Positions 10,246 through 42,014 of a DNA stretch of 64,000 nucleotides are shown piece after piece. The stretch's first letter is position 1. The number at the start of each line of letters is the position of its first letter. The stretch comes from Dudresnaya verticillata (taxonomy: Eukaryota), in assembly GCA_977862235.1 (NCBI GenBank), contig OZ374562.1, positions 434,001-498,000 on the forward strand. The letters run 5' to 3'. A model generated the notes under the pieces. That model did not search any database. It was not told the DNA's origin and was given only the letters and a program-made list of their open reading frames with translations. A program made the position numbers and the translations under genes.

Positions 10246-11026
10246 CTTGGCTGGCGCGCTACTCTACACACTGTACAGATACTCACTAAAAATAGAGAAT
10301 AAATACTACAAATACTCCGCTACGGTTGGTGCGTTACACTGCTGTACAGCAATGCGTACCAGCGTACAGCAATGCGCACAACATCCGACACGGTTACACG
10401 TTTCCAGATTGTAAGGAAGGACCTTTTGGGTCTCTTGTGAACTCAAAGAGTGCACTCAATGAGAAAGCCGCAGCGCGGGTGCCTGGTAGCGGTGGTAGAG
10501 CGGGAGGAACCCAGAGGGTAGACGAGGGCACGTAACCTGATTGGAAGCACGATACTGAAGGTAGTTCACTGGGCGGGCAGTTAACCGGGCACGGGTGACA
10601 AGTGTGCTGTGGTGCCGATAGCTTGGAGACGTAGTTGGGGCCGGAAGGTGCTTACCTTTACTGTTCAGTGACCGCTACGGGAGATACCCTTATATGGTAT
10701 TCCGACTGTCGGGCAGCACCCCTCATACTGGGCTATATACACGCCCCCTATCCTAAGCTATAATTTCTAAAATAAATAGGCAGATACTAAGCTACTGACC
10801 TGCAGGATGACACTTGGACCAATCATGGGCTACCAATCTTGTCCCTGCTGGCGCCCTATAGGTAACGCTATTTCTGCGCATACAGCGGGCAGAGGGCCCA
10901 CTTTGTGACTTCTGTAAGCCCTTCACTGTATTACACAGATCATCAGCGTGGCGTACTGCCACATCATCCGTTACGGTTGGCTCGCCGTCGGCGTGCCGCA
11001 TGCGCGCCACAGCTCACTTCACCACA
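10246..11026 (-). repeat. 3' LTR remnant of element B (interrupted by solo LTR 10410-10935)
   Basis: Ends CTCACTTCACCACA as at 42001-42014; ~90 bp near-identical to ~41785-41870; adjacent PPT. Confidence 0.8.
10410..10935. repeat. Solo LTR, 526 bp
   Basis: TGTAA...TTACA termini; 5-bp TSD CAGAT (10405-10409 / 10936-10940). Confidence 0.85.
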
Positions 11027-11165
11027 GACCCCCCTCCTTAAATGGCGCCACGTCCTCGGGCGCCGACCGTCACGGATCTCTATCGCTTCCCCACCCACGC
11101 ACACACACAACCGATACGGAAGTGTTCTCATCAGTCCCTTCCCTTTCTTGCGCGCTTCTCCCACC

Positions 11166-12776
11166 ATGTCAGGGGAGAAGACCAAGCGCTCACCGTCGCC
11201 CTTTCAACCGACACGGCGTTCCCGCGCGGCTTCCACGACTAGGGCGCAGGGCGCGCTAACCGTTACGGATGCTTCGACTCAAGCACCGGCTTCTTCCTCG
11301 GCGGCAGCGACGCGACCCGCAACGGGCGGTCGTACGAGCGTTGCCGTGACGGAACCTTCATCGGCTCCATCAGCGGGCCGAGGTTGGTCTGTCTATGATC
11401 CGAATCGGTTTGCTGCGAGCGCAGCCACAAGGACCGCGCTACCAGGGAGTGTAGCGACCCACCGTGACGGAGAGGCGCCAACCAAGGACCGCGATGATGC
11501 ATTCCGTCGTGATGGCGAGGAGCTCAGCTTGGCAGACCTACCGGCCATTCCGTTACGGGCACCATCGACACCGGTATCGACGCCGAGTCGTAGGATGGTG
11601 GCGAGTCCACATCCTTCATCAAGTACACCGAGACGGATGCGTGGGCCCCCGCAAATCAATCATCCTGCACCGGGGCCTTGGTGGCCGGTGGTTCATACCC
11701 GTGACGGAGAGGGCCCTGCCCCGAGTGGTTATTGGCCGGGGCACCACTTTGATCATCGCGCGAGGCGCCCGGCTAGAACCGATGCGGAGAGGGCAAAGAT
11801 TAAGCCCCCGATGACGGCGGACTACTTCATCGAGAAGTATCCAACCGTCTTGGAAGCAAGAAGGTATAAGGCCGTCATGGCGCAACCCTTCAAGGCGAAT
11901 CAACGCATTGGCGTTGTTCCGAATCGGAGAGAATTTGTATGGCAAAGCCGATGGGTGCATGGCTATTGTCAAGCGCGGACCTCTACCGTTTCGGATTTGT
12001 TGTGGTATCGCTGCCATGGGGAGGTAGGATATACCGCAAAGGTGAGTCACCTGTTGGCCAAAGGTTTCCGTCTCCGGGGTGCGCCGGTCGGAGTGCAATT
12101 CATTTGCTTCGACCGCCCCTATGACCAGTCGGTATATTGGTTCAGCTATGCCGATGGGTGGAAGGACGATGCCGCGACGGAACACCGTTTGCGAACTCGT
12201 TCCCGTCACGGAATGCAAGTTGGCTCGCCAATCCTGCATACTTGGAACACTAAGGAGTTCTTCCATCTTCCGTATCGGGTGCGTCGTGAACTGTACCTTA
12301 CAGCTCCGTCATGGTGGGATCGTTATGAGGTGACCCGTTGGTTGTCTGTCCCCACACCTTCTGTCGTGGCATACTTCTCGGCGGACCTACTCACCGAACG
12401 GGAGTGGAATCACAAACATCCGAACGGAGAGCGCCCCCCGAATCAAGATCAGCTCGATGTATTGTGGCGCATCTTCCGATCGGAATGGGCAATGCTAGTG
12501 CTCTTCTCGTGGCTCCAGGTGGCCTATTACGGAGTACGGAATAATACCAAGTTAGCCGACTGGCGATGCTTCCCACGGGATGAGGATGACCTGCCCGGAG
12601 GAGACTGTGGCCGTATTTTTCAACTTCCCGTAACGCTGATCGCCCTCATTCGCCAAGTCGGCGTAGCCGATTTGGTGACGGGGTCGTCGTATCCTCTGCA
12701 TCGGGTTGAGCGTCTTTTATCCGTACACGGAGAGCAGGATTGGCAACGCACTCCGGGCTTCTTGGGGTATAGTTGG
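11166..12776 (+). pseudogene. Element B antisense accessory ORF, part 1 (537 codons)
   Basis: ATG 11166 (MSGEKTK); open until the element A insertion; rejoins 25930 in frame after removing A and one TSD copy. Confidence 0.8.
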
Positions 12777-13614
12777 TGTGGCATAGCTGTAAGACCAGCT
12801 GTGCCACGCACGCGCAGCTGTAAGACCAGCTGCGCCACGTGTGCACTGCTGTGCGCACGCTGTCAGCCGGTGGCGCCGAAGCCCCGCTGAACTGTAAGGG
12901 AGTGCGCAGTGGCGCCCACGTGTACACGCGTTCGCGTGTGACACTGAAACTCCCATGTAATTTCTACGTTTATTGTTTTGTGAGTGTACAGCACCCTCTA
13001 GTGTAAGCGGCGGTCGAACGCCCTGCTGTCCCGCGCGCTGTGCGCACGCACTCCGGCGCAGAGCCGTTGAGTGCGTGACACGCGCGCGCGCACTCCGGCG
13101 TCGAGCCGTTGAGTACGTGTGGACCGTTCCGCCTACGCGCGCCCCCGGGTTACCGTTACCCGTACGCGTCGACGCGTGTTGGGGCGCGCCGGCGCACCTC
13201 CCGGGTTGGTGCCGCCGCAGGCCCTGTAGTATATCTAGTAGTCGCCCCTCTGGGCTGCAGTAAACCAAGGCAAGCCAGCCTACGCCAGGCTTGCCCTTTC
13301 TGCTTTGGGTTTCTTTCCCAGTCCTTCGCCCTACGGCTTCCCTCTTTCCCTAGCCGTCTAGGCTTTCCTTTTCCTTTCCCTACCGTCGGCTTCGTGCCTC
13401 CCCACGACGGGGACGCAGGGATCCGGCCGCTGCCGCCCGCGTACGGTACGCCCCGTGCGCGCTCAGGCTTCGACGCCGTTGATCCGCGACCGTCGACGGC
13501 GCGCGCGGCCGACACCACCGCTCTACCACCACAGCTACCACCCTTCGACGGGTCTTGGCGCGACTGATCGACCAGCGCAGCTAGACGTCAGTTCGACCTG
13601 ACGTCTATGCCACA
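12777..13614 (+). repeat. 5' LTR of element A
   Basis: Direct repeat of 25087-25924. Confidence 0.97.
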
Positions 13615-13615
13615 C

Positions 13616-13631
13616 TGGTCTCCCGACCTAG
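13616..13631 (+). promoter_or_regulatory. Primer-binding site TGGTCTCCCGACCTAG (probably tRNA-Tyr)
   Basis: 1 nt after the LTR; the first 10 nt are complementary to a ...CGGGAGACCA tRNA 3' end as in yeast tRNA-Tyr. Confidence 0.75.
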
Positions 13632-13682
13632 AAGTCGCAGAAGACCCTATCACCTCTCGCGTCGACGCGATCGAGGCCAAGA

Positions 13683-16097
13683 ATGCCGCCGCTACCTACT
13701 TCGGCCGCTGCCGGTCCGGCAGACGCCGCGGCAGGTGAAGTTGGCGGTCGACGCACTTCCTTGCTGAGTAACGTCGGCGTCTCAGGAGCTCCCCTAGAGG
13801 AACCGCGCATCGAGCGCAGGGCGGCTATAGCCAAGGCCCTAGGAGGGACAGCGGTCTCTGCGACCGACCTCCAGCTACTCTACGAGGAGACGATGGACTC
13901 CTTTTCGGAAGTGTACGACACCTTCATGGCCTCAGTCGCAGACGCACGGGCACAAGGTCAACGTGACCTGGAGTCGCTTCGACGCGGAACTCTCGCCTCC
14001 GTCGAGGAAGGATTAACCCGAACTCAAGGGCTCCTCGACGAGCTACGCCAACGCGTTGAGTTGATTGAGCACGCACCGGCGCGGTATGACCGACGGGCGC
14101 CTAGCCCGTCGCCGGGGCGGAGCCGTCCTCCGCGATCGCCGTATCAAGCGGATCCGGTTCGCGAACTGGCCAAAGCCCTCCTCGCTGAGCGTCGTGCTCA
14201 GCGAAACCCTTTTTCTCCACCGGCCTCTCCGCCTAGGAGTGGGCAAGGGTCCCCTCGCCCTACAAGAGATGACGACCCTTCTACGGGGTCGACCCCAAGC
14301 TACTACGACGCGCCCTCGACGGGCGCGGAGTTGGAGGGGCGTCTAGCCCCTCACCACACGAAGGTCCCGTGTCGGCCTACTGGCACTGGGGGCCATTGAT
14401 GCCGGGCGTCGAGCCGCCGAGCACCTTGGTCCCCGAATTCGCGAAGGCGATCGACTACCGCTCCTATCGTCTAGACGACATAAGGCAGCGGGACAATCAG
14501 CAGCAAGTCTGCAATGGCAACACCGCCAAGATTGTCAGCCGGATGAAGGCTCTCATGCCGCGGCTAGATCGCTACGACGGCAAGGAGCCCATCCGCTTTC
14601 TTGGCGTGCTTAGACAGCTACGCCAAGCCTTCAACGGCGTCGGCCTGTCGGAAGGCGCAGCGGCGCGAGTGGTGTCCTGGTTCCTAGACGGAACGGCATC
14701 CCAGGTGTATTCGAGTCACCTTTTCTCGGGGGTCCGGACGACTAGTCGCGGCACCCCCCCGTGCTGGGCCTCGGTGGTCAATACCCTCGTCGAGAGGTTC
14801 GTCACCGACGACGTGATCGCCGACGCGCACGACCGACTGACCACCGCCCGGCAGTGGGACGCCGAGTCAGAACTCGAGTTCGCCTCTCGTCTAGAGGGCT
14901 ACGCCGATGACTGTGCCGGCGTCTACTCCGACGAGAACCTGACGCACCAGTTCTTGCGTGGTCTGCTTCCGACCACCCGACCCGCAGTAGCGGAGAAGGT
15001 AAGGCAGATGCCGATGGTCGAGCAGACCAACTTCAGTACCGTTCGTCGGATCGCCCACAGTCACAACCTACCGCGCCCGCATGGCCAAGGCGTCGACGCC
15101 GGCCATCGTTTCGGGGCGCGGTAGGGGAAGCAGTTCGCCAAGCGGCCGCACGCTGCTTATCGAGGCGCCACACACACCCGATAGGGAAGCGGCCTTCGAC
15201 GGCACGATGTTGGTGGCGCCCGATGACGATGGTTTCGAACCCGTCATGGTCGTGCCCGCGCTGTCGACAGCCGGGGCGGCGCAAGCCGAGGAGACCCTCG
15301 ACATCTCAGGACGCATCGACGCTGTCCTGCCGAGGAGGATCCCTCCGCTCACACCGGCGCAAGAGGCCATGGCCCGCGCTGTCACCCCTGATCGACAGGG
15401 GTGGTACATCTGCTGGTTCTGCCGAGAACTTGGGCACATCATGTACTCGTGCCCATTCCTGACTAAGGAACAGCAGTTGTACTGCGCGTATGCGAACTGC
15501 AGCCATAGACTGGAGACGCAGCCGCACGCGCGCAACAACTTGCAGCAGCTCATCGACGAGCGCATGCCGGCAGGCGCCAAGGCAAGTTACCCCGCAAGAC
15601 GCTTCGACGCGCAGCGGGGTGGGGCCCGACGCTTCGACGATAGGGGTCCCCCGCAGCGCTTCGACGCGCAAAGGTATCGCGGGGAGCCGCGACAGTACCG
15701 CGGGGATCGTCGAGATCCGCGCCGCGAATACCGAAGGGCAGACGTCCCGCGGTTCCTCACTCGCGACAAGCGGGTCGGGTTTGACGACCAAGCCGGTCGC
15801 CAACCTCGGGCGTCGACACCCTCGAGGCCCGACCCGCAGCGCGAACTGCTTCGGGCAGTGATGACCGTGCAGGAGCACACCGGTCTAGCAGCCGACGAGT
15901 GGCTCCCGCGAGCGCTCGACGCGCAGAGCAAGGGCGAGTCCGCCAGGGGGCAGGTCGAGCAGCCCCCGCTCCTTTTTGACACGCCGCCGCGATCGACGCG
16001 AGGCGCCGGCCCGGCCCCTAGCCAGCCAATGGGATCCGAGGAAGATAGCTCGGATTCCGAAAATAATTTTGACCGGGTCGAACCGGAAAAAGAGTAA
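13683..16097 (+). pseudogene. gag: gag of element A, split by two frameshifts (13683-14399, 14369-15124, 15081-16097)
   Basis: DYRSYRL...YDGKEPI capsid-like region shared with B gag; CCHC knuckle CWFCRELGHIMYSC. Confidence 0.85.
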
Positions 16098-16111
16098 AGG
16101 CGGCGCCGTTC

Positions 16112-19100
16112 GTGCGGTCGCGCGCACCGTCTCTCTCTACCCCAGACCCACCATCCTCCGCCAAGCCGTCGGCGGTAGGCAGGACTTCGAGTCCCAACCA
16201 ACGAAAGACCCCCTCGCCAAGCAGCGCTGAGGGGCCGCTTTGCGACGAGCCGTCGAAAGCCACGCGCTCCAGGCCACCTTGGCCCCCGCGGCGTCGACGC
16301 AAGGGACAGGCACGACGCCGAGCGCATAGGGGTCCGTCGACGGATCCCGAGGCACCCTTCGCTCCACGCGAAGGTGCCATGGCTCTCTGCGTCGACGCGG
16401 AGCCGGCCACTACCCCCGACGGGTATGTGTGCCTCTTCTCCTCGGAGATATACCGCGTGTCTGGGTCGCTAGGCGCTGACCCAGGGGTAATGATACCCCA
16501 CACCATTGCGGTGGACACCGGCTCCGGGTACAACCTCATCGCGAAGCGGGCGCTGCCGCCCGGATGGGATCAGCACGCGGCGGCGATGGAGTCGACTCCT
16601 CGCCTCGCCGGGGCTGATAAGACCCCACTGAGCCTATCAGGGGTGGCGCACCTCTCGATGAGGTTGGGGAACACGACGTTCCGCGTGCCATTCATAGTGG
16701 CAGACACCTTGGCCGTCGAAGCCCTGGTGGGAACGCAGTTCCTCAATGCGCACGTGCGAGGCATCGACGTCGAGTCGAAACGCCTATCGCTCCGACGTGG
16801 GGGCTCGGTGCCCCTCCTCAAGCGCAGTAGGCCTGCCGAGGACCGCAAGCCGTCATCGAAGCCGAAGAACCCGTCGACGGGTTTGTCGAGGAAGCACCAG
16901 AGGGAGCTCCTCGACTGGGATCACGACACCCACACCATCCGCCTCTCTAGGCAGATGGTGCTCCCAGCCTATTCCCAAAGGCTCGTCTCCGTGACTTCAG
17001 GAGCCAGTGGGCTGATCCACACCGAACCCAAACCCTCGTTGCAGTTCCGCCACGGCGTGAGACTTACCAACGGGGTGCACGACGTCGAGTGGATGCGACC
17101 TTTCGGGGTCATCGTCGGGAACTTCACCGACAAGCCTCGGACCCTGCCTAAGGGTACCGTTGTCGGCTACGCGGTTAGGAACCCGGTGGCACTGATAACT
17201 CCAGACCGCAAAGTCGCGGAGGAGTTTGGGCGGGTGATGAACATCACCACCCTACCACCACGGGGGCAGAGGCCCCCGGTCAATCAGGGTGCCGTGGAAC
17301 CATCCACCTCGCCGTCGACGGCGAAGAGCACCGACGCCCAGCCGCTGCAGGGCGCAGCTACCGCCGCAGCGAAGGCCAACCCGTCCGTCGAGGACTGGGA
17401 GGCGCAGGTCAACCTCTCGTCTATCGAAGACGAGGTGACCCGCACGGAGGTCCTCTCCATGCTCAGGAAGCATCAGTCCATGTGGGACGGGAGGCTGGGC
17501 ACTATTGCCGCCACCCGACACCACATCGACGTGGAACGGGGCACTCGCCCCATCCGCTCCATGCCCTACCGACAGGGCCCTGCCATGCGCAAGCTGGTGC
17601 AGGACGAGGTGGATAACATGCTTCGTGCAGGGGTTATCGAACCCGCCACCTCGGAATGGGCATCGCCAGTCGTCCTGGCGCCCAAGAAGGACGGCACACT
17701 TAGGTTTTGCGTGGACTATCGACGTCTCAACACGAAAACACTAAGTGATGCGTACCCTCTACCGAGGATGGACGACTGCATCGACAGTCTAGGCGACGCA
17801 GCCGTCTTCTCGACGTTGGACTGCAACGCGGAGTACTGGCAAATCCCTGTCGCAGAGGCTGACAGGGATAAGACCACGTTCACTTCGTTCTTAGGGACGT
17901 TTCGCTACTTGCGAATGCCCTTCGGGCTGAAGAACGCCCCCGCGACTTTCCAGCGCGCACTAGACATCATCCTCAGCGGATTCCGATGGCAGTGCTGCCT
18001 GATCTATCTAGACGATGTGATCATTTTCTCGCGGTCGATCGCGGAGCACGTTGGTCATTTAGACCAAGTGCTGACTCTGTTGCACAAGGGAGGAGTATCC
18101 CTGAAACTGAAGAAGTGCCACTTCTTTCAGTCACGCGTTGGCTATCTCGGCCACGTCATCGAACCGGGGAAGCTACGCATGGCGCAGACGAGCAGCGACG
18201 CTTTCCGCCATGCGCAGTTCCCGACCTCCCTGACTAAGGTGAGGTCGTTCCTCGGCGCGTGCAATGTCTATCGCCGCTTCCTGCGCAACTTCGCGAAGAT
18301 CGCGCGTCCTCTGACGAACATGACCCGCAAAGACGCGGATGTGGATTTCGACAATCCAAGCGCCGACGCGCTCGAGGCATATGAGACGCTCCGAGCGAAG
18401 CTCATATCGCCCCCTATCCTACGGCTCCCCAAGACGGGTAGACCCTACGTCCTCGATACGGACGCATCGGCTTATCAGCTCGGATGCGCCCTACTGCAGG
18501 AGCAGGAGGACGGCCAGCTACACCCAGTCGGGTACTGGTCCTACTCGCTCAACTCGGCGGAACGGAATTACTCCGCCACTGAGCGTGAGTGCTTCGCAGT
18601 GGTGTGGTCGATCACAACCCTGCGGCCATACATCGAAGGCACGCGATTCACGGTTCGAACCGATCACGATGCGCTTCGATGGCTGATGTCGCTGACCGAC
18701 TCTTCGGGTCGACTGACCCGGTGGCGCCTGCGGCTCGCGGAATTCGACTTCCAGATCGAGTACCGCCCCGGGCGGGTACACCAAGTCCCGGATGCCCTGT
18801 CCCGCTTGGTTCGACCCCAGCGGAAACAGGAGGAGGTTGACGACGACGTCCCTACCTTTGACCCCCCGGCGGTCGACCGCCCGCAAGGGGAGTCCTCGGC
18901 TGAGACGCCGGTGGCACGTCCGGGTACAGAACCCGCGGCTCCCGTCTTGGTAACCACACGCTCGCGGTCCAACGCATCTACGCGTTCGGCCCCAGCGCAG
19001 CCCGTTCCGAAGCCAGTCCGTGTAAGCATCACCGGCACCGCGCCCAAGACGGGCGCGGCAGATGAACCCCCGGACTTGGCCGACGAAGCGGCGTGGGACG

Positions 19101-20821
19101 ACACCGACGACGTCGACCTCTTCGATCTCCTCCGCGTCGACGCGGGCGACGAGCCATCGGACTTGACGTCCGTGGAGCCAGTGAAGCTCCCTTCACCTAT
19201 TTCCGTCGAGGAATTTGTGGACGCGCAGCGGCACGACTCCTTCTGCCAGACCGTACTGGCCAGGCAGTCCCGTCGACGGGATAGCCATTTTTACGAGGAC
19301 GGGGATGGGCTTCTATGCCGCCATCATCCGGTCATAGCTTCGCTAGACCAGATAGTGGTGCCCGAGTCGTTACAGCCTCGGCTGCTCACGCTCGCGCACC
19401 ACTCCCTCCTCGCGGGCCACCCAGGGCAGAACAAGATGTTCTATTCCCTGCGTGAGACCTACTACTGGCCGCATATGGCGGCCAGCATCGCCATGACAGT
19501 AAGAAACTGCAGGCACTGTGCCCGTAACCGCATTCGACTGCGCAGACACCTTCATAGACTGAAGCTGTTCCCGGCCACCAGGCCGCTGGAATCCGTTGCT
19601 ATCGACATACTGGGCCCCTTGCCCAAGACCAAGTCTGGTCGCAAATTCCTCGTCATCATGACGGACCGCTTTACCAAGCTAACGCAAGTCGCGCCTCTGC
19701 GCACCATTACGGCTTACAACGTCGCAGTTGTCTTCTGTGAACAGTGGGTCTTCCACTACGGGCCGCCTAGGTCCTTGCTTTCCGATAACGGAAAGCAGTT
19801 CACATCGAAGTTCTTCCAAGCCGTCTGCCGGTATTTGGGTTTGAACAACGTGTTCACCTCCGCGTATCACCCCCAGTCGACTGGGCAGGCTGAACGCTAC
19901 AACCGGACCGTCATGGCCATGTTGAGGAACTACGTCAACGATCACCAAAACGATTGGGATCGCTACGCCTCTGCGTTGACGTATTCCTACAACTGTCACG
20001 TGCACCGCTCGACGCGGACGACTCCATTCAGCTTAGTGCTGTCACGGCCTCCGCCGGAATTTACTAAGTTTCACTCGGCGGTCGACCGCCCGAAACCTAG
20101 TGAGGATGTCCGAACGGACTTCCTCAAGCGGTTAGACACCGCTATGGGCCTGGCTTCTGCCGCCCTGGCCAAAACGCAGAGGCGTTACAAAAAGGACTTT
20201 GACCGACGGGTCCGGAAGGTCAACTCCCGCATCAAGGCCGGAGACTACGTCTTCATCGACGCAACTGACGGGGTGACGAAACCACCGAAGTTGCAGAGCC
20301 CGGCCATCGGGCCTTATCGCGTGCTGCTCAACGACGAGCGCACGTTGTTTATCGACAGAGACGGCCTGGTCGAACGCATCGCAGCGGACCGAGCCGTCTT
20401 CTGTCCCCCGCCTCTGCGGGAAGACACCGCGCGTCGAAGCGCGTACTTGCCCACAGCTAACGATCTCGCGTCCAAGGCCGTCGACGGCCCGCGGTTCGTG
20501 GTGGACAAGGTACTTGACTATGGCACGGCCGAAGACGGCACGATGCTCTTTCAGGTCAAGTGGACCGGCTACTCTAAGCCCACTTGGGAACCTCGATCCC
20601 ATTTGCCGGAGGAGATGATGAGCCAATACTTCCGCGCGAAGAAGCGTCGGAAGGACTCTGGGCTCGACGCCCCATCCCCTCCACTCGCCCCCTCGGCGGG
20701 GCGCCTCGTGCTTAAGGAGGGGGCCCCAGGCATTCTTTGCCTCAGGCATTCCTTGCCTGTTATTACCCTCATCCAGGCATCCTTTGCCTTTTTCCCAGCG
20801 ACGGGAACACGTGGGGCCTAA
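16112..20821 (+). CDS. pol: pol of element A: PR-RT-RNaseH-IN-chromodomain (in -1 frame relative to the gag end)
   Basis: VDTGSG protease; RFCVDYR, MPFGLKNAP, YLDD; DTDAS RNaseH; HHCC plus DDE integrase; GPY; VDKVLD..VKWTGY..TWEP chromodomain. Confidence 0.97.
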   Translation: MRSRAPSLSTPDPPSSAKPSAVGRTSSPNQRKTPSPSSAEGPLCDEPSKATRSRPPWPPRRRRKGQARRRAHRGPSTDPEAPFAPREGAMALCVDAEPATTPDGYVCLFSSEIYRVSGSLGADPGVMIPHTIAVDTGSGYNLIAKRALPPGWDQHAAAMESTPRLAGADKTPLSLSGVAHLSMRLGNTTFRVPFIVADTLAVEALVGTQFLNAHVRGIDVESKRLSLRRGGSVPLLKRSRPAEDRKPSSKPKNPSTGLSRKHQRELLDWDHDTHTIRLSRQMVLPAYSQRLVSVTSGASGLIHTEPKPSLQFRHGVRLTNGVHDVEWMRPFGVIVGNFTDKPRTLPKGTVVGYAVRNPVALITPDRKVAEEFGRVMNITTLPPRGQRPPVNQGAVEPSTSPSTAKSTDAQPLQGAATAAAKANPSVEDWEAQVNLSSIEDEVTRTEVLSMLRKHQSMWDGRLGTIAATRHHIDVERGTRPIRSMPYRQGPAMRKLVQDEVDNMLRAGVIEPATSEWASPVVLAPKKDGTLRFCVDYRRLNTKTLSDAYPLPRMDDCIDSLGDAAVFSTLDCNAEYWQIPVAEADRDKTTFTSFLGTFRYLRMPFGLKNAPATFQRALDIILSGFRWQCCLIYLDDVIIFSRSIAEHVGHLDQVLTLLHKGGVSLKLKKCHFFQSRVGYLGHVIEPGKLRMAQTSSDAFRHAQFPTSLTKVRSFLGACNVYRRFLRNFAKIARPLTNMTRKDADVDFDNPSADALEAYETLRAKLISPPILRLPKTGRPYVLDTDASAYQLGCALLQEQEDGQLHPVGYWSYSLNSAERNYSATERECFAVVWSITTLRPYIEGTRFTVRTDHDALRWLMSLTDSSGRLTRWRLRLAEFDFQIEYRPGRVHQVPDALSRLVRPQRKQEEVDDDVPTFDPPAVDRPQGESSAETPVARPGTEPAAPVLVTTRSRSNASTRSAPAQPVPKPVRVSITGTAPKTGAADEPPDLADEAAWDDTDDVDLFDLLRVDAGDEPSDLTSVEPVKLPSPISVEEFVDAQRHDSFCQTVLARQSRRRDSHFYEDGDGLLCRHHPVIASLDQIVVPESLQPRLLTLAHHSLLAGHPGQNKMFYSLRETYYWPHMAASIAMTVRNCRHCARNRIRLRRHLHRLKLFPATRPLESVAIDILGPLPKTKSGRKFLVIMTDRFTKLTQVAPLRTITAYNVAVVFCEQWVFHYGPPRSLLSDNGKQFTSKFFQAVCRYLGLNNVFTSAYHPQSTGQAERYNRTVMAMLRNYVNDHQNDWDRYASALTYSYNCHVHRSTRTTPFSLVLSRPPPEFTKFHSAVDRPKPSEDVRTDFLKRLDTAMGLASAALAKTQRRYKKDFDRRVRKVNSRIKAGDYVFIDATDGVTKPPKLQSPAIGPYRVLLNDERTLFIDRDGLVERIAADRAVFCPPPLREDTARRSAYLPTANDLASKAVDGPRFVVDKVLDYGTAEDGTMLFQVKWTGYSKPTWEPRSHLPEEMMSQYFRAKKRRKDSGLDAPSPPLAPSAGRLVLKEGAPGILCLRHSLPVITLIQASFAFFPATGTRGA

Positions 20822-21960
20822 GCCCCACGGTAAGGGCATGAATTGCGGCTGCCTAAGCCGGCGGCCCAAGCCGAAAGCACCCTGCGCCAATGGCAGAGGC
20901 CAAGGAGCAGGCGTGCTCTGCGAACTGCGCATCGCAGGGACGCTGGGCACGACGCCCCTCGCTACTACCGGCTCGACGCCCGGCAGTAGCGACGTCCCGC
21001 TACGCGGAAGACAACCCGCACCGTCGGGGGTTGTCTGACCAACGCCGACGCGAAGCCGCGCACAGATGGCGGAGGGAAGGCGTCGACGCCCCCTTCACCA
21101 ACGCCGCGCCGCGGTCGCGCGTAATATTCGGCCAACAACCACCGCCCTGGCTCCTAGCCGGGCGGGGTGCCAACGCACACAGATCCCACGTCGAGGTGGG
21201 GCGCCAGAGCCAAGAAGGCCGGCGTCCTTCGAGTTGCACCGCTGCGCTTCGACGAGCGAGCGGCACAACCACCGCGACGGTGGGAAGGCCGGGGGCACCG
21301 CGGCAGACGACCGGCCCCTGCCAAATACAGGCGCGCGCTTACCCATATTTGGGACGCGTGCGCCCCACAAGCGCAGAGGCGCAGATTTGTGTTCAGGCTA
21401 CAGTGTCTACTATAGCCAAAACACAAATAATTGGGAACGCCCAATGGGGTTCGACACCCCCGGGCCTCTGCCCACTCATCCAGGGGCATCGACGCCCCTG
21501 GCCTGGGTTGGCTGCACAAGCCGCCGCCACGCTCGTGGCTACTCCCGGCGGAGGGGACCCCGTCGACGCGGTCACCTCCGGCGCAAAGCCGCGACGCCAC
21601 TAGGGGCACCCGCTCCGCGCTGACGCTCCGCGTCGACGCGGTGTTGCGCGCGCTGGCAGCCCCCTGTGTGGCGTCGACGCCAGCACTGCGGACCGCCACC
21701 CGCTTCGACGTGGGTCAGGCACAATAGCACCCATGAGGAGGTGGGGCGTCGAAGCCCCACCACCTGCTACAGCGAGCATAGCTCGCACGCAGCCGCGCGG
21801 TCGAAGGCGCAGCTGTTGAAAACGCGTCGACGCGGACCGAAGTCTTCGCCCACCCCTTGCCCTTTTATGAACCAGACACGCAGCGGCGGTCTAAAAACTA
21901 GCGAGGCGATCGACCGCCTCGAACTAGGATGCTTCTACAGCATAAGCCACTACGGCATAA

Positions 21961-31800: not shown

Positions 31801-33135
31801 AATCTATGCACTCATCCATCCTAGGCAAGGGATATGAGTCCCTAACCGTTACGGAATTGAGCCTTCTATAGTCAACACAGAACCGCATGGTGCCGTCCTT
31901 TTTTAGAACGAAAACCACGGGGCTGGCCCACTCCGATGAGGCCGGTTCAATTACCTTAGCGGAAAGCATGCGATCGATTTCTGTCTTTTCGAGATCTCGC
32001 TGCTTATGTCCGGCACGGTATGGGGCTTGATATACTGGCTTAGCTCCGGGAGTTAACTCGATGCGGTGCTTGGCAGCTGTAATGTTGCCAAGATCGCCAC
32101 TCCACATCGACTTATATTCCTCGAGTAGGGTTAAAATCCGTTTGTGGAGCGATGCTTCTTCTGTGCCGATCTGGACTTGATCCTTCCAGTCGGTAGTATT
32201 TGTATTTTCGGTTACGGGTTTGCTTACTTCCTTGTCGTGAGGGGAGATGCTGCTGGCCTTTTCGGAGGTAGGGTTAGAATTAAATGATTGAATAATTCCT
32301 CCCCCTCCTTAAATGGAGGTATACCGTCAACGGTAAAAATAGCAGATGGGGCAGCAGTAGCGAGGCCCACGACAGTAGATTTGGGCAACCGTACCGGCTT
32401 GTTAGAAAACTTAGAGACCCAGATCCGAAACGGTTTGTTTGGTACAACATCCATAATACCATTAGCCATTAATGTAAGGTGCTTAAAAGCCGGCTTTGGA
32501 TGATTTTGTAGAAAGCATAACCCACCCGTGGGGGTATTAACCGTTACGGTGGTTTGAGTCACAGGGGGAATAAGGGTAGATTTTGCTAAACGAAGTTTCT
32601 GAGAAACCGTAGCGTTAGAGAGAGGTGAGGGCTGTAGGGTTGCAGTGGTTCCCGTCTTCGGAATTTTGGCTTGACCAACAAGGGATACCGGTGGGTAATG
32701 ATGAAAAACAACTTTCCGTAACGGAGGGAGTATTGCCTTCACGTAGCGGTCGATGAAGGTAGTTCCCAAAATACAGGGAGCCGCCAAGTTCGCGACCACT
32801 AGAAAATGGACGCGAGCACGGAGCTCTCCGATACGGACGAAAAGTTGGATCTGACCAAGAGGGCGTATAGCGCGATTAGACGCATCCCGTAATGGAGGAC
32901 TGGATGCTGGGCGTATGAGTGGGAGCCATTGGCGCGGAAGGCGCCTGGCACTAATGAGATTGGGCCCAGCGCCAGAGTCCAAGACGGAGATTAAAGGAAG
33001 CATCACGCTATCTGTCCGTCCCACGGTAATTTGCATCTTGTAATTTTGATGTTGCATAAAGAAGATAGTATCATTGGTCTGATAAGCCAATGGGAGTTCC
33101 GTAACGGTATCTCGCCGATCCCCTGGCGGGTCCAC
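28859..33135 (-). pseudogene. pol: pol of element B: PR (32224-33135), RT-RH-IN (29171-32107), chromodomain (28859-29161)
   Basis: VLDSGAG; LDCNSGYWQ, YLDD, DTDAC, integrase core, GPY; YVIDKIV..YKVRWYGY..TFEP; one frameshift and one in-frame stop. Confidence 0.95.
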
Positions 33136-33349
33136 ACTCGCGAGAGGTGGAACGCCGTGAGGCGGGGATGGCGGCGCCCTAACGCATCCCCCTTGAGTTT
33201 TCCGAATTCAAGGTTGCACCAGTCGGATCCGCCTCCATGGGCTCGCGCAATTCTGCGAGTTCCACTCCGTCATGGTCCTCCACCGATAGTATCGGGGCAT
33301 TCCGTTGCGGAGGGGGCTTTTGCGGTCTGCCCCTATTCCCTTGCGGATT

Positions 33350-35659
33350 CTAACTGGTTCCTACTACGAACCTGCGACCTACAGGGTAGTGCTTCTGGAA
33401 GTTGCGCTCGCGCTCTTCCATAAGCCTAACCCGATCGGAGTCATGTATCCAGGGGCAAACAACGCGCTCTGGCGAAAGGCAGATGCGACAGTTACCACTT
33501 CCGTAAAGGCGTCGGACCCGAGGATTCGACTCATCCCGTAGCGGAGGTGCTGGTTGCTGCTGTCCTCGCCCATCGTGGGCATTATTTCCGTAACGGTGAC
33601 TCAGCTGCTGTTGGGGGCCAGGAGCCGGGCGAGATCCACCATAGGGGGGACCTTGCGCGCGTAGCATCCTGGGCGGAGTAGGGTGGACGCTTTGCGGGGG
33701 CGAGGAGTACGGGGTAGAAAAGGTAACCCCCGTGCTCGTTCCCGTAGCGGCACCGTGACCTCCCTCGACGGCTAGCACTTTATTATCCGTAGCGGAAAGA
33801 TTCCCTTGCGACTCATAGTTTACATCCGATACGGAATCCAGCGACAACACCTTAGACGGGCGCGCTTTAGTGCGCCCATCAAAGACGTGAGCCGGAACGG
33901 TTTGACGTCGAACTGCCCGATGGGACTAACCCAGGCCAGTCGCATAGCGAGTGATGGCCTGATAATCCAACTGGCAATGCGCCGCTAGACAATTTCTCAT
34001 CTGTTGACGAGTACCCGGTAGGAGTCCTTCAACGAACAGTGACTTCAATGCCCGATCGGAAAATACTGTACCGCAACGGAGAGCCTTGGCCCAGAGCTGG
34101 TTCGAGAACTGCTCTTCCGTCATGGCGGATGTTTGCCTGAAGTTACTGACATCCGTATAGGCTTCAGCAATCACTTCATCCGTAGCGTAGGTTCTCAATA
34201 AAAAGTTCACCACCTCGGAATATGTGCGGAACATCTCAGCCTGCTCCACGTCAACCGCCATGGTACCTCCAGCAAGCCTAGCCTGTAGAAGGGCTTCGGC
34301 CTGTCCTTTAAGGAAAAACTGGAAGCACCAGACGGTAACCCCTTCGGCGATGCCGTTGATGTTACAACCGTCACGGAGCTTGGCGAGAAATCCCAAGGCG
34401 GTAATAGGGTCCGTCCCATCGAATGTATGGGACGACATCTGGACGTCGAGTTTCTTCCGTATACGGCTCATGTTTTGTGAGAACTTAGAGCCGTATGTTT
34501 TACTCCTCTTATCCAATCGGTAGGTGCGGTAGTCTAGCGCCTTGACAAATTTGTCATGTAGCGGCCGGATTACCTTCACCTTTCCGGATTTGGCACCGTG
34601 TTTTCTGGCCCGGTGCCTATTCTCTCTATCCGTTACGGAAGAACTCTCTGAGTCTGAATCCGTAGAGGTAGAGGAGTCATGCCTTTTTTCGCGTTTCCGC
34701 GATCTTCTGTTTCTCCTCTTGCGGCGGCGGTGTTGGCTATCCTCTGAGCTGCTCTCATTGGATTCCATACCGGATTGGTGGCGTCGTCGCTGGGTGTGGT
34801 CGCCCATGTGCGACCGACGGGGAGGGTCAGAGCGGGAGTGTCGGGCATCTCGTTTATGCCGACCTCGACCGGTCCTCCAACTCGGATGGGGTGAGCTGGA
34901 CGCATCGCTGAGATGGTCGCTGCCTCCACCTGATCGAACCGGAACGGTATAGCGCTCTTGCTGATAACGCCCTGGCGTAGGCACATCTACGCGTCCAGGC
35001 GAATACCGTAACGGTGGCTGGGTGTGTGTTGGTCCCGTAGGGGCGTGTTGATGTTGAGAATCCGTTACGGGAGCCGGTGGCAGTGGCCCAGAGGGTACTG
35101 TGCCCGGCGGCAATCCCATAACGGGGGGTTGTTGCGGCTGCTGCGTTCTTCCCTCGACCGGGAAGTCATTCCGTAACGGTGGTTGCTCAGTGAAAGCTTC
35201 CGTAGCGGGAGGCCTTGCCATGCCGGGAGCAATCTGGCTCTCGAGCTCGGCGGCCACCTTTTCCTGTAGGATCAAAGCTTGCACTATCCGAGGAAGGTGC
35301 TGCTCCAGATAGGAATTAACCAAAGACGGAACAGTTTCCGAGAGGGATATCTCCACCTCTTTTACCATTCCAGGTTGTACTTCCAATCGGAGATGCTCTA
35401 ACACCCTAGGAAGGACCTCCGACAGGACCCAGTGGACCCGATGGGATTCCGGCTTGGGTTGCGGAACTGCCTTCGTGGAGGCGTCTGATCCGACACGGGA
35501 ACGGGGAGCTTTACCAGCAGCACCCTTTAGGATGTCTTCTGGGTTCTCCACTCCGGAACGGATTTCACCTCCTTCACTGCGCAGACTGCGCGCAGCGGGG
35601 GTAGTGTCACCCGCTTTAGGTTCCGTAACGGGACGGTCTGCGTGTTCTTCGTTCTGCAT
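33350..35659 (-). pseudogene. gag: gag of element B (disrupted)
   Basis: LDYRTYRL, FDGTDPI, FLLRTYATDEVI capsid-like region; degenerate knuckle CRICLSPERVVC. Confidence 0.85.
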
Positions 35660-35786
35660 GATGCCTTAACATAACACAACGGTTGTTCTTGCTTGTCTAT
35701 CCAATATTCCGTAACGGGTTGTCGGTACAGCCGAATTCCTACCGTAGCGGATTTCGACGGCTGTTTCTTCCAACCGTGACGGTGTT

Positions 35787-35802
35787 CTAGGTCGGGAGAC
35801 CA
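35787..35802 (-). promoter_or_regulatory. PBS of element B (identical to the PBS of A)
   Basis: Reverse complement reads TGGTCTCCCGACCTAG, 5 nt from the LTR. Confidence 0.8.
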
Positions 35803-35833
35803 AAAGATGTGGTGTAGTGAAAACCCACGAACT

Positions 35834-38800
35834 CTTTGAGATTAGCGAGACCCCAGGAGGAACCCTGATGGGCGTGAAGGAGATAGCGGTAAAACTGTTT
35901 GGCGATGTCCAGGAGCTGGTTATGTACTGTGTTATCTTGTTGTTTACTTGTGCAAGTCTTGAAGGGACTTATATGCACTTTTGAGTTCAGGGAAACCTGC
36001 CTAAACTGAACTCCCCCTGTCCTGCGCGCCACGAAAGTGGCAGGAGGCGCGCCAGGAACATCATAAGCGTTCCATAGCCACTCTACGCTACTCAACGTAA
36101 AGTACTATCTATAGAACCGCTTGATTTCACTAGTCCAGGAGACCTTTACGAGATCTCCTGACAGACAATTCATTCCTCAGGTGCTGCCAACGTGAATTCA
36201 GGAATCACTTCCTGGTCCTTCCTGGAAGCTGTCATTATGTCTTCATCAAAATCCAGATGCAAAAATTACATCTCTTGAATTTCTCCTGTCATCCACATCA
36301 ATTCCTGACAACTCCTGTTGTAGCTGTGCCACTCCTGACACGTACCATGAATTACTATGCGCGACCACCGTACATACACTATACCATCAACACCCCCTCT
36401 TGCGGTGTGAGCCTTACTTCGCCTTGACGACATCCTGCAGACGCAATACTCCCATGCCTGTTCTATGCTTCTCGAACAGAACTCTTTGAAGAGGCTTCGT
36501 CAGTATATCTGCTCCCATCTGCTCTGTTGGACAGTACAGGAGGTTGATGATACCCTCCTGTACGTTGTTTTTGACGAAGTTTCTGCGGATGGAAACATGC
36601 TTGGCATGTCGAACACCTTCTGTTCCCCAAACCAAAGCTCCCTGATTGTCTCCTAAAATAGTCGTGTTGGCTTCCGGACGACTTTCCAGCTCGCTCAGAA
36701 GCTTCCGCAGCCACACGACCAACTTCACACCTTCGCTCATCGCGCAATACTCAGCCTCAGTAGTTGACAGGGCGACACCGCCTTGTTTCACCGTGCGCCA
36801 TGCTACTGCAGCACTACCCAGCAGCATCAGGATCCCTGAAGTCGACTTCCTGTCGACTCTGTCCCCATCCCAGTCAGCGTCACAAAACGCCTTCAGCACA
36901 CACTCCTGGTCGGTCAGGAGCCTGAGGGAGTACTCTGCAGTTCCTCTAAGATACCTCAGGATCCTCTTGAGTCCGATCCAGTGTACTTGTCTAGGACTTG
37001 CAGCAAACCGGCAAAGTATGCCCACTGCTGCACTGATGTCCGGCCTTGTTCTTGTAGCAATGAAAAACAGACATCCCAGGACTTCCTGATAAATCTTGAC
37101 GTCTGATGGAGGACCAAATCCGAAAATTCTCGCAGCGCTCCCTCTGCCATAGGGGTCTGCACCGGTTTGCAAGTTTCCATCCCAAACCTGTTCAGGACTT
37201 GTAGAACATAGTGTGTTTGGGACAGCCAAGCCCCCTCTTCATCCCTGATGAACAAAACCCCCAAGAAGGAGCGCAACGAACCCAGATCCTTAACATCCAG
37301 GTGTTTCCCCAACTCCTTCTTGGTCTTGAATACTGCTTCCAGATCACCCATCAGGATAACATCATCGACATACAGAAGGATCCAAACCTTCCTTTGTCGA
37401 TACACACAGCTGTCAGATATCAAGCTGTCGAAGCCTAGTATTTCCATTATGGATTCCCACTTGTCATGCCACAAACGTGGTGCCTGCTTGAGTCCGTAAA
37501 GCCCTCGACGAAGCTTCAGGACCTTTCCTGGCTCACAAAGAGTGAGCCCCGTGGGCGATTTGATGTATACCTCTCCATCAATCTCTCCGTGAAGAAAAGC
37601 GGTGCGAACATCCATCTGTTGAACGCAATACCCCCTCTGCACCACCACCGCAAGGCAGGTGCGAACCGTCGCGAAGTCGACGACTGGAGCAAATGTCTGA
37701 TCAACGTTTCCTTGCAAAAATCCGCGGACGACCATCCGGGCCTTGTACCTGATGACCTTTCCTGACTCGCCCTTCTTGCGAAGAAATATGAATCTAGTAG
37801 ATAACGGACGAACTCCCTCAGGTTGCCGCACTACTTCCCAGGTTCCATGCTTCCTGAGTGACTCCAGCTCAGAATCAATGGCCTCTTTCCAATGTTGGGC
37901 GTGGCTGCTCCTAAGGGCTTCCTGTACTGATGACGGTTCCTGTTGCGACGCCTCGGTCATCACTAGAGCCCTTGCTACCGATCCAGAGTAGTAAGAAGGT
38001 GCCCTACGCTCACGTTGAGGATAACGACGAGCCTCTGTCTCATTCCGAGGGTAGTGTGTAACCATCTCCTGATGGCCTTCTACGTCTCCTGTTTCCCCTT
38101 CTTCTCCTTGAGCATCTCCTTGATCATCATCAGCAACATCATCTTCTTGAACAGCATCATCCAAGTCTCCTGCATCATCCAGATCTCCTGTATCATCAAC
38201 AAAATCTTGAACAGCATCTGAGTCTTCTTGAGCATCAGAACGCTTTCCTGAATGCCCTTCCTGAACCCCATCAGGAGTTGTAAGACCTTTCTCTTCCTGC
38301 ACAGCCGGCTCATCTTCTTCTTCAGCCAGCAGCGGTGCAGGACCAATACTGACAAAGTCTTTCCTGCTAGGAAACTGACTTTCATCCACTGTGACATCTC
38401 TAGATACCACAGCTATGCTCTTAGACGGTAACCAGAGCTTGTACTGACTATTCTCCAGACATCCAACTATGATGCCAAGTTCCGACTTGGCATCCATCTT
38501 CTTCCGATACTCCTTCGGAATGTGGTACCAACCAAAACACCCAAAGACCTTTAGAAATTTTGCGTCAGGCTTCTTCCCCGTGATCATCTCGTACGATGTC
38601 TTCTTACTATCCTTGGGACAGAAGAACATGTTCCTGATCTTTGCGGCATGGACCACAGCTTCAGCCCAGAACCTCCTGGGCAACGACGCGTGCTCTAGCA
38701 TCGTCCTGGCGCACTCCATGATAGTGCGGTTGGCTCTCTCTGCCATCCCATTCTGATTAGGAGACTTAGTAGGAGCCATACTCTGCTCGATCCCTTGCTC

Positions 38801-41363
38801 TGCGAGATACGATTTCATACCAACGTACTCACCACCACCATCACTATGTAGCCTCTTGATCTTGCAGTCGAACTTCCTCTCCAACCAGGCTTGGTATATC
38901 TTGAAGTTCTGAAGAACCGAGCTCTTCTTCGCGATAGGTACCACAACAAGGTACCCACTGTACTCGTCAATGAAAGTGACGAAATACCTGGCTCCTCCAA
39001 AAGAGCGAACAGACATCGGACCACAAACGTCCGAATGAACTACAGCGCACCTCTCTTGAGTCCTGTTTTTGTTCATGCGCAACTTCTGCCTTGTCTGTTT
39101 TCCCTTCATGCAACTCTCGCATTAATTGGTGCCACTCCTGGGCAACCCGAAGCTGATCCCCGTCACAGCTCCTGTCTTGAGCAGTCTCTTGACGCTCTCG
39201 AGGTTGGCATGCCCTAGTCGTTCGTGCCACAACCTCAAACCGGAATCTTCCAGCTCACTGTGCCTCCCTCGAGACACTGCAGCACGTCCTGAGTGCTGCC
39301 CGGGGTGTACAGGAGTTGCCTTAACCTTGTACACTCCATGATTCACCTTCCCCAGAAAGTGAATGACTTCTGAATGCACTCCTACACACTTCGTACGTCC
39401 AATCTTGATGTCATACCCTTCTTCACACAGTTTCGAGCATGAGAGAAGGTTGGTGTGCAGCTCCGGGATATATAGTACCCCAGGAATAACTAGAATGCGT
39501 TCATCGTCCTGCTCCTGTCCAACGAAGGTCTGCAGGACCAGTGTTCCGCGATGCTTTGCGAACACTTTCTCGCCGTCTCCCAACATGATAGCCCTTGGCG
39601 CGATCTCCTGACAATCGCGAAGCCACTCCTGGCTCCATACCATGTGGTCCGAAGCTCCTGAATCCAACAAAAATGTGGTAGGGCTCCTGGTCATGGGCTT
39701 TTCCATGACTGCGGCGTAGTCTGAGTCACAATCGTAGTGACTACAGTAGACTTGGTATTCCACGTCCTCCTGGTATACAGGACAGTCCTCGTAAACATGT
39801 CCCTTTGACAAGCAAGAGAAACAGGTCTCGTCCTGTTCGCACATCGGCTCGAGTCCAGGTTCCTGACAGCAGTCCACAGCGGTCAACAGCTGCGCCCTCT
39901 GGGCGTTCCCACCATCCCCGGATTCGTTCTTCTTCTTGTCCTTGTACCTCTCTTGACAGTCCTTGATCAAGTGGCCAACCTTGTCACAGTAAAAGCATTT
40001 CCGCTTCTCCTGGTTCTTCTTGTTACCCTTCTTCCCGCGACCTGCTCGATGCCCACCGCCACTTGCAGTAAGAGCTTGGCCTTTCTCATTGGCCTTGGGA
40101 GCCTTCGTCCCTTTCCTGAGCAATTGGTCCTCATACTCCTGAAGGAGGGTTGACGTAGCTGTCTCCCAGTCCAGGACCTCCTGGCGCGACTGTAGCGATG
40201 CCAGGACGTGTCCAAAAGGCGAGATATTCTTGTCTCCGAAGGAGGCCAAGAGCATAGCCACTTGCATGTCATCCGCGATGGTACTCTCCATCGCAGCTAG
40301 TCGGTTGAATATCTCCTCGAAGGAATCAACGTAGTCCTGCATGGATTCCCCTGAATAATTCATCCGGGCCAACTTGGTCTGCAGCTGGACCCTGGTAGCC
40401 GTGTTCGATACGGCGTACCGGTCCTTCAGATGCTGCCACATACGGTATGGGTTCTCCTTCACGCTCAAACAGAGCCTCAGCGGTCGATCTCCTAGCCCTT
40501 GTATCACAACAGCGCGAGCCGTCGTAACCTTCTTCCTGATATCATCACTTGACACCTCATCCTGGTCCAGGACGTCTGACGTCACAACATCAAGAACGTC
40601 CTTGGCTTCAAGCGCAGCGTCCGTGCGCGCACAACAGAGATGAAAGTCTTCTCCAGGTTTACCGTAGAACTTGTAAACCTTTTTGCTGTCCTCCATGACC
40701 TAGCACAGTAGTAATGGCAAAGCCTTGACAACTTTCGAAAATCATAACCGAACAGGAAGATAGTGCAATACGATCAGCAAAGAGCGAGGGCTGGGCCCAT
40801 AACCCTTTGAGATTAGCGAGACCCCAGGAGGAACCCTGATGGGCGTGAAGGAGATAGCGGTAAAACTGTTTGGCGATGTCCAGGAGCTGGTTATGTACTG
40901 TGTTATCTTGTTGTTTACTTGTGCAAGTCTTGAAGGGACTTATATGCACTTTTGAGTTCAGGGAAACCTGCCTAAACTGAACTCCCCCTGTCCTGCGCGC
41001 CACGAAAGTGGCAGGAGGCGCGCCAGGAACATCATAAGCGTTCCATAGCCACTCTACGCTACTCAACGTAAAGTACTATCTATAGAACCGCTTGATTTCA
41101 CTAGTCCAGGAGACCTTTACGAGATCTCCTGACAGACAATTCATTCCTCAGGTGCTGCCAACGTGAATTCAGGAATCACTTCCTGGTCCTTCCTGGAAGC
41201 TGTCATTATGTCTTCATCAAAATCCAGATGCAAAAATTACATCTCTTGAATTTCTCCTGTCATCCACATCAATTCCTGACAACTCCTGTTGTAGCTGTGC
41301 CACTCCTGACACGTACCATGAATTACTATGCGCGACCACCGTACATACACTATACCATCAACA
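35834..41363 (-). mobile_element. Full-length Ty1/Copia LTR retrotransposon (5.5 kb)
   Basis: 559-bp LTRs 35834-36392 and 40805-41363, apparently identical; TSD GAACT; PBS GGTTATGGGCCCAG (40791-40804); PPT 36393-36403. Confidence 0.96.
36414..40696 (-). pseudogene. Copia gag-pol with two frameshifts (39122-40696 gag-PR; 36956-39109 IN-RT; 36414-37229 RT end-RH)
   Basis: CCHC knuckles, LDSGAS, WHERLGH, HSDVCGP, SDGGGEY, LYGLKQAP, YVDD, TRPDI, STTEAEY, ADILTK. Confidence 0.93.
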
Positions 41364-42014
41364 GAACTCCGAGACGGACAGCTGGCCTGACTTTCCTTAA
41401 CGGACGAGAGAAACACTACCTCCACGGGGTGGTAGAGCAGTTCGCACCGTAACGGGAGAACAGCTAGCGGCTAATCGAGACGGATATTGGGAAGCAACAG
41501 ACAAGGGGGTGGTACAAGTGCCGGGACGGACTCCGTAACGGTGGTGATGGTAGACCGCAACTGTGGTAGACCGCAACGGGCTCGGCGCGGGGAAAACCGT
41601 AAAGGATTGGGCTAAGGTTGCTTACACGTTTACCTTAGGAGCTGCTGCGGTGCCGCCCTGATATACAAGTCAGGGTGGCACCGAGCGGTCCGGTCCGTGG
41701 GGGCCAGACCCTAGTGGTCTGGTCCTATGGTGGAATCGGCCCTGCTGGTCCCAATCTCCGACACGGACATGCGCAGCATTCTCATTGGCTGGCGCGCTAC
41801 TCTACACACTGTACAGATACTCACTAAAAATAAAGAATAAATACTACAAATACTCCGCTGCGGTTGGTGCGCTCCACTTCTGCACAACAATGTAAGCCAT
41901 CACACAACAATGCACCCAAGGCCGAGACGGATACACGTGCACAAATCCCACAACGGTTCAGGCCACACTATATGCATTTCCACCGTTTCGGATGCCCAAT
42001 CTCACTTCACCACA

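Follow-up and report, generated by a model that had tools for sequence, protein, structure and literature searches.

A short palindrome, CCG-N3-CGG, saturates a chromovirus of Dudresnaya verticillata, coding sequence included

The sites that control a transposon are usually thought to be confined to its ends. What could then be the reason for a retrotransposon to carry one short palindrome over its whole length, through its own genes? This question is raised by a stretch of 64,000 nucleotides from Dudresnaya verticillata (GenBank assembly GCA_977862235.1, contig OZ374562.1, positions 434,001 to 498,000 of the forward strand), which we call the window, and whose own numbering is used for all window positions below. 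The window contains a Ty3/gypsy chromovirus, here named element B, which lies on the minus strand, is split by two nested retrotransposons (element A and a Copia element), and is filled with the motif CCG-N3-CGG. For all counts, element B was taken as the segments 10247-12771, 25925-35829 and 41364-42100, 13,167 bp in total.

Abundance and anatomy of the motif

The first-pass annotation of the window had claimed more than 60 copies of CCG-N3-CGG in element B. Our count gave 87, located between 10317 and 41991 (an unstranded set spread over all parts of the element), against 7.04±2.57, with a maximum of 15, in 300 dinucleotide-preserving shuffles of the counted sequence (z=31.2). The number of motifs is thus about 12 times that expected by chance. 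All 32 positions listed at first pass are true matches, and the cluster noticed between 10968 and 12270 exists, with 18 sites rather than the 14 reported. Two of the 87 sites, at 27383 and 27458, lie inside a foreign repeat (repeat C) and overlap that repeat's own motif, which leaves 85 sites for element B proper. The spacer of three nucleotides had been proposed to be in excess over other spacers. When this check was run, only the spacer of 3 was strongly enriched (87 vs. 7.0±2.6); a spacer of 4 was in weak excess (21 vs. 6.9, z=5.3), and spacers of 0-2 and 5-12 were found 2-12 times each, as expected. The arrangements CGG-Nk-CCG, CGG-Nk-CGG and CCG-Nk-CCG gave no spacer peak in element B. 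The saturation of element B with CCG-N3-CGG is confirmed as real.

The motif had also been described as sparse in the neighbouring elements. This was correct for CCG-N3-CGG, with 14 sites in element A (z=-0.3) and none in Copia, but the palindrome that element A bears itself, described below, had been missed. The flanks were at expectation as well. A metagenome scan yielded 80 related loci of 40-55% identity, to which the L-numbers used here refer; among 82 sequences that were shuffle-tested, element B stood at z=28.4, followed by L066 at 6.9 and L008 at 6.1. Across the parts of element B, the density of the motif varied between 4.4 and 18.3 per kb and peaked in the leader and the 5' portion of ORF-L, an open reading frame (ORF) antisense to pol. 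Pol and gag had 4.8-6.3 sites per kb, and the stretch containing repeat C had 1.8. Distances between neighbouring sites (mean 146 bp, median 92.5) looked random, and since their coefficient of variation was 1.08, the sites do not form a periodic array.

Could the motif be a functionless by-product of codon or dipeptide usage, of CpG context, of low-complexity or tandem duplication, or of a palindrome-creating mutation during reverse transcription? Element B is indeed CpG-rich (1,051 CG per 13,167 bp), and perfect palindromes can arise by template-switch "quasipalindrome correction", a mutational process that could explain the covarying flanks of element A discussed below. However, both the dinucleotide shuffles and the synonymous-codon shuffles described in the next section fall far short of the observed numbers, and the sites occupy all frames and the non-coding parts. 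No tandem repeats were found beneath the element B sites, and Rfam gave no matches within the window. The flanks of these sites are all unique and show no sign of having been perfected. We consider a functionless origin most improbable.

The position matrix extends the full motif to an 11-bp palindrome, T-CCG-T-W-A-CGG-A. The exact form CCGTWACGG makes up 24 of the 87 sites, and CCGTNACGG, with a TNA centre, 34 of them. While the centre is soft, the arms are invariant: any one-mismatch variant of an arm occurs 0-17 times, compared to 87 exact copies, and the arms are never swapped for other complementary triplets. At two pairs of homologous sites in the terminal repeat remnants of the element (10317/41855 and 10385/41922), the arms have been retained and the centres differ. 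The minor class with a spacer of 4 often takes the form CCGT-NN-ACGG. Base preferences on the two sides mirror each other, T at position -1 (45/87) with A at +9 (40/87), and T at +3 (51) with A at +5 (60). Within individual sites, complementary pairs were present in 24/87 cases at the flanks (expected fraction from the column composition 0.35) and in 39/87 cases at the inner positions (expected fraction 0.46). The half-sites of the element B motif vary independently, without covariation. Mirror symmetry without covariation is the pattern expected from a pair of identical protein subunits that each read one half-site of the DNA duplex; base pairing would not yield it.

The first-pass annotation had suggested a dimeric protein site. 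The symmetry of the motif, with its independent half-sites, would fit it. The two-fold symmetry of the element B site, its lack of covariation, and the strictness of its arms and spacer lead us to favour, tentatively, a protein dimer bound to double-stranded DNA. The motifs may thus be double-stranded-DNA sites, private to this family, for a symmetric dimeric protein, which is a possible reading and the one that we prefer, held with less than full conviction.

A second suggestion made at first pass was that of a Myb/MSA core, TAACGG. The motifs would then be ordinary host transcription-factor sites that drive or time the transcription of element B. Host factor sites in long terminal repeats (LTRs) are commonly borrowed by retrotransposons, and the commonest centres of the motif, TAA and TTA (12 and 11 of 85), do create TAACGG on one strand. 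The suggestion did not hold up against the full set of sites, just 35 of 85 of which carry AACGG on either strand, while both arms are invariant; a one-sided core needs no second arm at a fixed distance. Furthermore, promoter sites should cluster in the LTR and the leader, whereas pol and gag carry the motif at the densities given above and at about 50-70% of the permitted places. An ordinary Myb/MSA role is very unlikely.

Alternatively, the motif could act in RNA or complementary DNA (cDNA), either as dispersed Gag packaging signals or as stickers through which genomic RNAs of one family would join in pairs, leading to dimerisation, co-packaging or family-specific RNA clustering. A pair of canonical sites is predicted to anneal into duplexes of 11 bp, at -13.6 to -17.7 kcal/mol. 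Self-recognition of this kind requires no co-evolving protein and would explain the existence of one word per family, and the 14-bp palindromes of element A, with their covarying flanks, are a signature of pairing. Dispersed packaging signals in coding RNA are known for parechovirus and hepatitis B virus (HBV), according to the accessible portions of the corresponding reports (PMC5431903, PMC6281560). By contrast, the flanks and inner positions of the element B sites lack covariation, their arms never change to other complementary triplets, and the centre is self-complementary in just 39 of 87 sites. The predicted arm-pairing probability in the sense RNA was low (mean 0.095, median 0.025, with 2 of 44 sites exceeding 0.5) compared with 0.147 in flank-shuffled controls, and sense-strand C-to-T variants, which are compatible with wobble pairing, were not favoured over G-to-A variants (10+0+0 vs. 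8+2+2). Rfam gave no matches within the window. We regard a role in RNA or cDNA as unlikely.

The motif in coding sequence and in other families

To describe the use of the motif in genes, we defined occupancy as the number of sites present divided by the number of places where the amino-acid sequence permits the motif. The element B pol (29171-32308, minus strand), which encodes reverse transcriptase, RNase H and integrase, contains 15 sites, against 1.7±1.1 in synonymous-codon shuffles, with similar gaps in the other element B frames. The earlier argument that codon bias is not the cause was therefore well founded. Occupancy amounted to 15/21 in pol, 11/22 in gag, 18/26 in ORF-L, 6/9 and 6/10 in two small frames, and 8/24 in ORF-R, a second frame antisense to pol. 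The controls gave 2/41 for the pol of element A, 0/17 for Copia and 2/30 for a host PP2C gene. The sites use all three frames and occur on both strands and, just as densely, in the non-coding ends, in line with the earlier observation that they are found in ORFs of both strands and in LTRs. When 34 long pol frames were compared (32 metagenome relatives, A and B), element B reached an occupancy of 0.71 at spacer 3 and 0.47 at spacer 4, and all others were at or below 0.47 at every spacer. The number of opportunities for the motif in the element B protein is ordinary (20 per 1000 amino acids vs. 10.6-28.8 in homologues), and the signal thus resides in codon choice. The pol sites overlie residues conserved in 14 homologues, for example PYRAG, IRPG and IPLR. 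An origin of the sites as insertion footprints was rejected, since they align with conserved residues. We also observed that none of the 24 places in pol that permit CCGCGG or CCG-N1-CGG is used, compared to 15/21 for N3 and 8/17 for N4, which resembles an avoidance of short spacings.

Is element B alone in this respect? An unbiased dyad scan revealed that element A (12777-25924, plus strand) is saturated with a palindrome of its own, CGTCGACG, which is also its top 8-mer: it is present 26 times (24 if one LTR is excluded), where about 1.5 copies would be expected. In the pol of element A, 8 of the 13 places that permit it are taken, compared to 1.0±0.9 when codons are shuffled, and these sites fall in poorly conserved linkers. 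Repeat C, an unstranded unit of about 0.7-1.1 kb, lies within element B at approximately 26400-27530, and two further copies follow on the right side of B, one inverted (about 43880-44491) and one at about 45787-46368; it carries CGTC-N3-GACG and CGCC-N3-GGCG, each roughly 3-6 times per copy. In L001 (1-2968), the nearest relative of B among those compared at the DNA level, ACG-N3-CGT was found 13 times in 3 kb, against 2.0±1.4 expected and with spacer 3 only; element B contains none. L066 (1-9400) has CCGASTCGG, with the centre AST in place of TWA, L008 has CCGWCGG (29 vs. about 11, spacer 1, z=6.1), and L059 has GACC-N3-GGTC and CGTC-N3-GACG. Only 7 of the 80 metagenome loci retained a dyad at p<1e-5 once sites with similar flanks had been removed, all of them far weaker than those of A and B.

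Among the metagenome relatives, the strong dyads of L067 (4457-5969), L022 (854-1401) and L009 (26-5187) were rejected as tandem satellites, located within or next to the related elements, rather than dispersed sites. Their periods are about 57, 29 and 173 bp, respectively, and each unit contains a GC-rich dyad, so that they mimic saturation in simple counts. The notion that all relatives use CCG-Nk-CGG with a family-specific k was only weakly borne out: z reached 2-4.6 for k=0 in many GC-rich loci, and 4.3-6.1 for k=1 in L008, L028 and L038. Codon occupancy there was unexceptional. Among the private dyads of the metagenome relatives listed above, a spacer of 3 recurs.

Since the co-resident A and C, as well as the relative L001, carry different dyads, a host-wide mutation bias can be ruled out, which also speaks against the functionless origin considered above: neighbours in the same genome carry other words, and a bias shared by them is not the cause. 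We infer that selection at the level of the element, and not general mutation bias of the host, keeps the sites. Codon choice in the gag and pol of element B has been shaped to accommodate a single palindrome, which in pol fills about 70% of the places open to it, and its neighbours in the same genome do likewise with other palindromes.

ORF-L and the layout of element B

About 5 kb separate the chromodomain of element B from its left end, and this region contains the two frames antisense to pol, ORF-L and ORF-R. ORF-L is interrupted by the insertion of element A. Its 5' part (10866-12776, plus strand) contains 18 motif sites, and its 3' part (25930-26379, plus strand) continues in phase past the insertion for 149 codons to the stop. 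The two parts were translated separately, and the codon phase at the target-site duplication agrees. The likely start is the Met at 11166, followed by a basic, disordered N-terminal part and by a conserved domain of 308 amino acids (11853-12776). A full HMMER scan with this domain gave 106 homologues at E<0.001, and a word-indexed search gave none. Its closest named relative, from the red alga Gracilariopsis chorda, is annotated as a "hypothetical protein" and is present there in multiple copies. In at least 20 of the 80 related loci, a gene resembling ORF-L is located downstream of pol in antisense orientation. The protein is basic (pI 9.4-10.9), and the fold of its domain was predicted with a local confidence (pLDDT) of 89 and a global score (pTM) of 0.90. 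ORF-L has no Pfam match, a sequence profile search against the PDB returned no hits, and the ESM Atlas returned no usable match. Judging from its homologues and from the structural model, ORF-L is a real, conserved accessory protein with a predicted orphan fold. Some of its homologues possess coiled-coil tails.

ORF-R (27515-28783, plus strand) is a frame of 422 amino acids with 8 motif sites. It is of low complexity, rich in P, A, S, T and V, and the search for homologues returned none. Its status is doubtful, and it may not be a gene at all.

On the minus strand, the chromodomain of element B (28859-29170; PF00385, E=3.1e-10) is divided from pol by an in-frame stop. All of RVT_1, RT_RNaseH, Integrase_H2C2 and rve were matched by Pfam in pol. 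Upstream of it, on the same strand, lie a protease-region frame (32224-33207) with a weak aspartyl-protease match and 6 motif sites, and the gag region (33350-35665) with 17. The latter consists of 33926-35665 (579 amino acids, weak Retrotrans_gag match) and of 33350-33925, in the same frame past an in-frame stop. The element has two in-frame stops in all, this one between the two gag-region frames and the one between pol and the chromodomain. The left terminal repeat remnant (10247-10401, unstranded) contains 2 motif sites and is 86% identical to 41785-41938; these 155 bp alone are common to the two ends and do not define the full LTR bounds. The leader together with the right terminal repeat remnant (41364-42000, minus strand) carries 9 motif sites, at 9.5-14.3 per kb, and the right end of the element adjoins a different repeat. 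The best protein relative of element B is 63% identical, and the nearest named relative of its pol, at 58% identity, is likewise from a red alga, Chondrus crispus. Viral contigs scanned with the pol alignment for closer copies of element B gave no match.

Both nested elements are young insertions. Element A, itself a chromovirus and no part of B, has LTRs of 843 bp that are 99.8% identical, and its target-site duplication is GTTGG. Copia (35830-41363, minus strand), which served as an internal control, has LTRs of 563 bp that are also 99.8% identical. Elsewhere in the window, positions 42875-43738 are occupied by a solo LTR that belongs to the A family. An intron-free frame of 841 amino acids with a PP2C phosphatase domain and about 60-65% G+C (1356-3881, plus strand) is presumably a host gene, and provided the host control used above. 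In the region 49463-62645, direct and inverted repeats, with units of about 200-560 bp that are 85-98% identical, are intermingled around a fragment of a Copia-type integrase at 58782-60254.

Possible readers of the motif and comparison with known systems

How might the motif work? In the reading that we prefer, a dimeric protein would dock on the copies of T-CCG-TWA-CGG-A and thereby address this one retrotransposon family. The reader could be a dimeric DNA-binding protein encoded by the host, or the ORF-L protein of element B itself. The purpose may be to mark the copies of the family over their whole length, for example in order to counter silencing, as VANC does for the Arabidopsis transposon VANDAL21; another conceivable purpose is to organise the chromatin or the cDNA of the family.

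A number of observations weigh against a dedicated dimeric reader, and in particular against ORF-L in this role. No DNA-binding domain was found in element B: Pfam is empty for ORF-L and ORF-R, and gag has a weak gag match only. A regular-expression search of the six frames of element B found no Zn2Cys6, CCHC or C2H2 pattern. The fold of ORF-L has no solved relative, the best matches being E 0.54 with Foldseek against the PDB, Z 3.5 in a wide VIA-align comparison, and E 0.34 in BFVD. Among 22 related loci with an ORF-L-like gene, L022 alone passed p<1e-5 for a dispersed dyad, with a signal that is partly tandem; L008 reached z=6.1. Since the relatives that bear ORF-L are mostly unsaturated, ORF-L does not predict saturation. 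Conversely, element A is saturated and has no relative of ORF-L, its antisense frames giving hhalign probabilities of 0.1 and 0.05 when compared with ORF-L. The flanks of the element A sites also covary: the first three outer positions are complementary in 22/24, 19/24 and 17/24 cases (expected 0.51, 0.39 and 0.26), so that the sites extend to 14-bp perfect palindromes with variable arms. This covariation points to nucleic-acid pairing or to a palindrome-perfecting process, and possibly to a different mechanism operating in the same genome. Finally, all element B data come from the single copy in the window. ORF-L is at present a weak candidate for the reader of the motif.

A broader generalization can be formulated, which we find rather doubtful. 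In each retrotransposon family of this red-alga-type lineage, one palindrome would serve as a private barcode (for B, CCG-TWA-CGG; for A, CGTCGACG; for C, CGTC-N3-GACG; for L001, ACG-N3-CGT). It would extend over genes as well as ends, and a dimeric protein specific to it, perhaps ORF-L in the case of B, would read it. The families would then be self-addressing, each recognising its own DNA, or nucleic acid, over its full length, and the barcodes and readers would co-evolve in the manner of VANC and its targets. If true, this would amount to VANC-like self-recognition, but in LTR retrotransposons and within coding sequence.

To our knowledge, the biology of red-algal transposons is almost unexplored. 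In the main text of the open-access literature we found no description of such motif saturation in LTR retrotransposons, searches for the motif strings returned unrelated sequences only, such as primers, and the literature on red-algal LTR retrotransposons and chromoviruses contained nothing on motifs. If the sites of element B are private docking sites for a protein, they would represent a sequence-specific self-addressing of retrotransposon families. This would bear on the escape from silencing or its attraction, on the distinctness of families, and on the targeting of a whole family by a short word. The motif and the antisense protein with its orphan fold provide two experimental handles in red algae.

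Among known systems, the dispersed RNA packaging signals of single-stranded RNA viruses and HBV (PMC5431903, PMC6281560, PMC7612645) resemble element B, in the parts of these reports that were accessible, in that tens of copies of one short motif are present, coding sequence included. The packaging motifs described in those parts sit in the loops of RNA stem-loops, whereas the element B sites have no predicted hairpins and exhibit a two-fold symmetry of the DNA type. A resemblance of another kind is offered by the plant Retand elements, in which antisense ORFs in a long region between pol and the 3' LTR encode a TRP28 domain with predicted DNA binding (PMC11963269, available portion). Like Retand, element B possesses a long region past pol, about 5 kb in its case, with a conserved antisense gene suspected to be regulatory. 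Retand elements, however, belong to flowering plants and are not chromoviruses, a TRP28 match is lacking in ORF-L, and element-wide motif saturation is not reported for Retand in the available portion of that paper.

The sites of the fungal Zn2Cys6 zinc-cluster factors are similar to those of element B in their strict everted CGG triplets, fixed spacing and loose spacer sequence, and the minor N4 class of element B would fit them as well. They are few per promoter, against 85 per element B, and we know of no member of the Zn2Cys6 family from red algae. In the consulted sections of a report on these factors, Leu3 reads CCG-N4-CGG and Pdr3 reads CCGCGG, the length of the spacer sets specificity, and the site is read by a coiled-coil homodimer (PMC10954478). 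A spacing of 3 was not found for zinc-cluster factors in those sections, and element B itself has neither a Zn2Cys6 pattern nor a Pfam match to it.

By analogy, VANC21 would be the nearest functional precedent for element B. In the portion of the report available, this protein, encoded by the Arabidopsis element VANDAL21, binds double-stranded DNA at YAGTATTAY and removes methylation (Hosaka et al. 2017, PMC5735166). Both systems have a short motif that is dense in one family and rare elsewhere, the density of sites being the feature that distinguishes the family, with related families having different motifs (PMC5735166, same portion). The differences are nevertheless considerable. VANDAL21 is a DNA transposon whose motif is non-palindromic and forms one-orientation arrays, often tandem, that are mainly non-coding, and coding probes were not bound in the experiments covered by that portion (PMC5735166). 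Element B, by contrast, is an LTR retrotransposon, with sites that are palindromic, dispersed, non-tandem, and placed within gag and pol.

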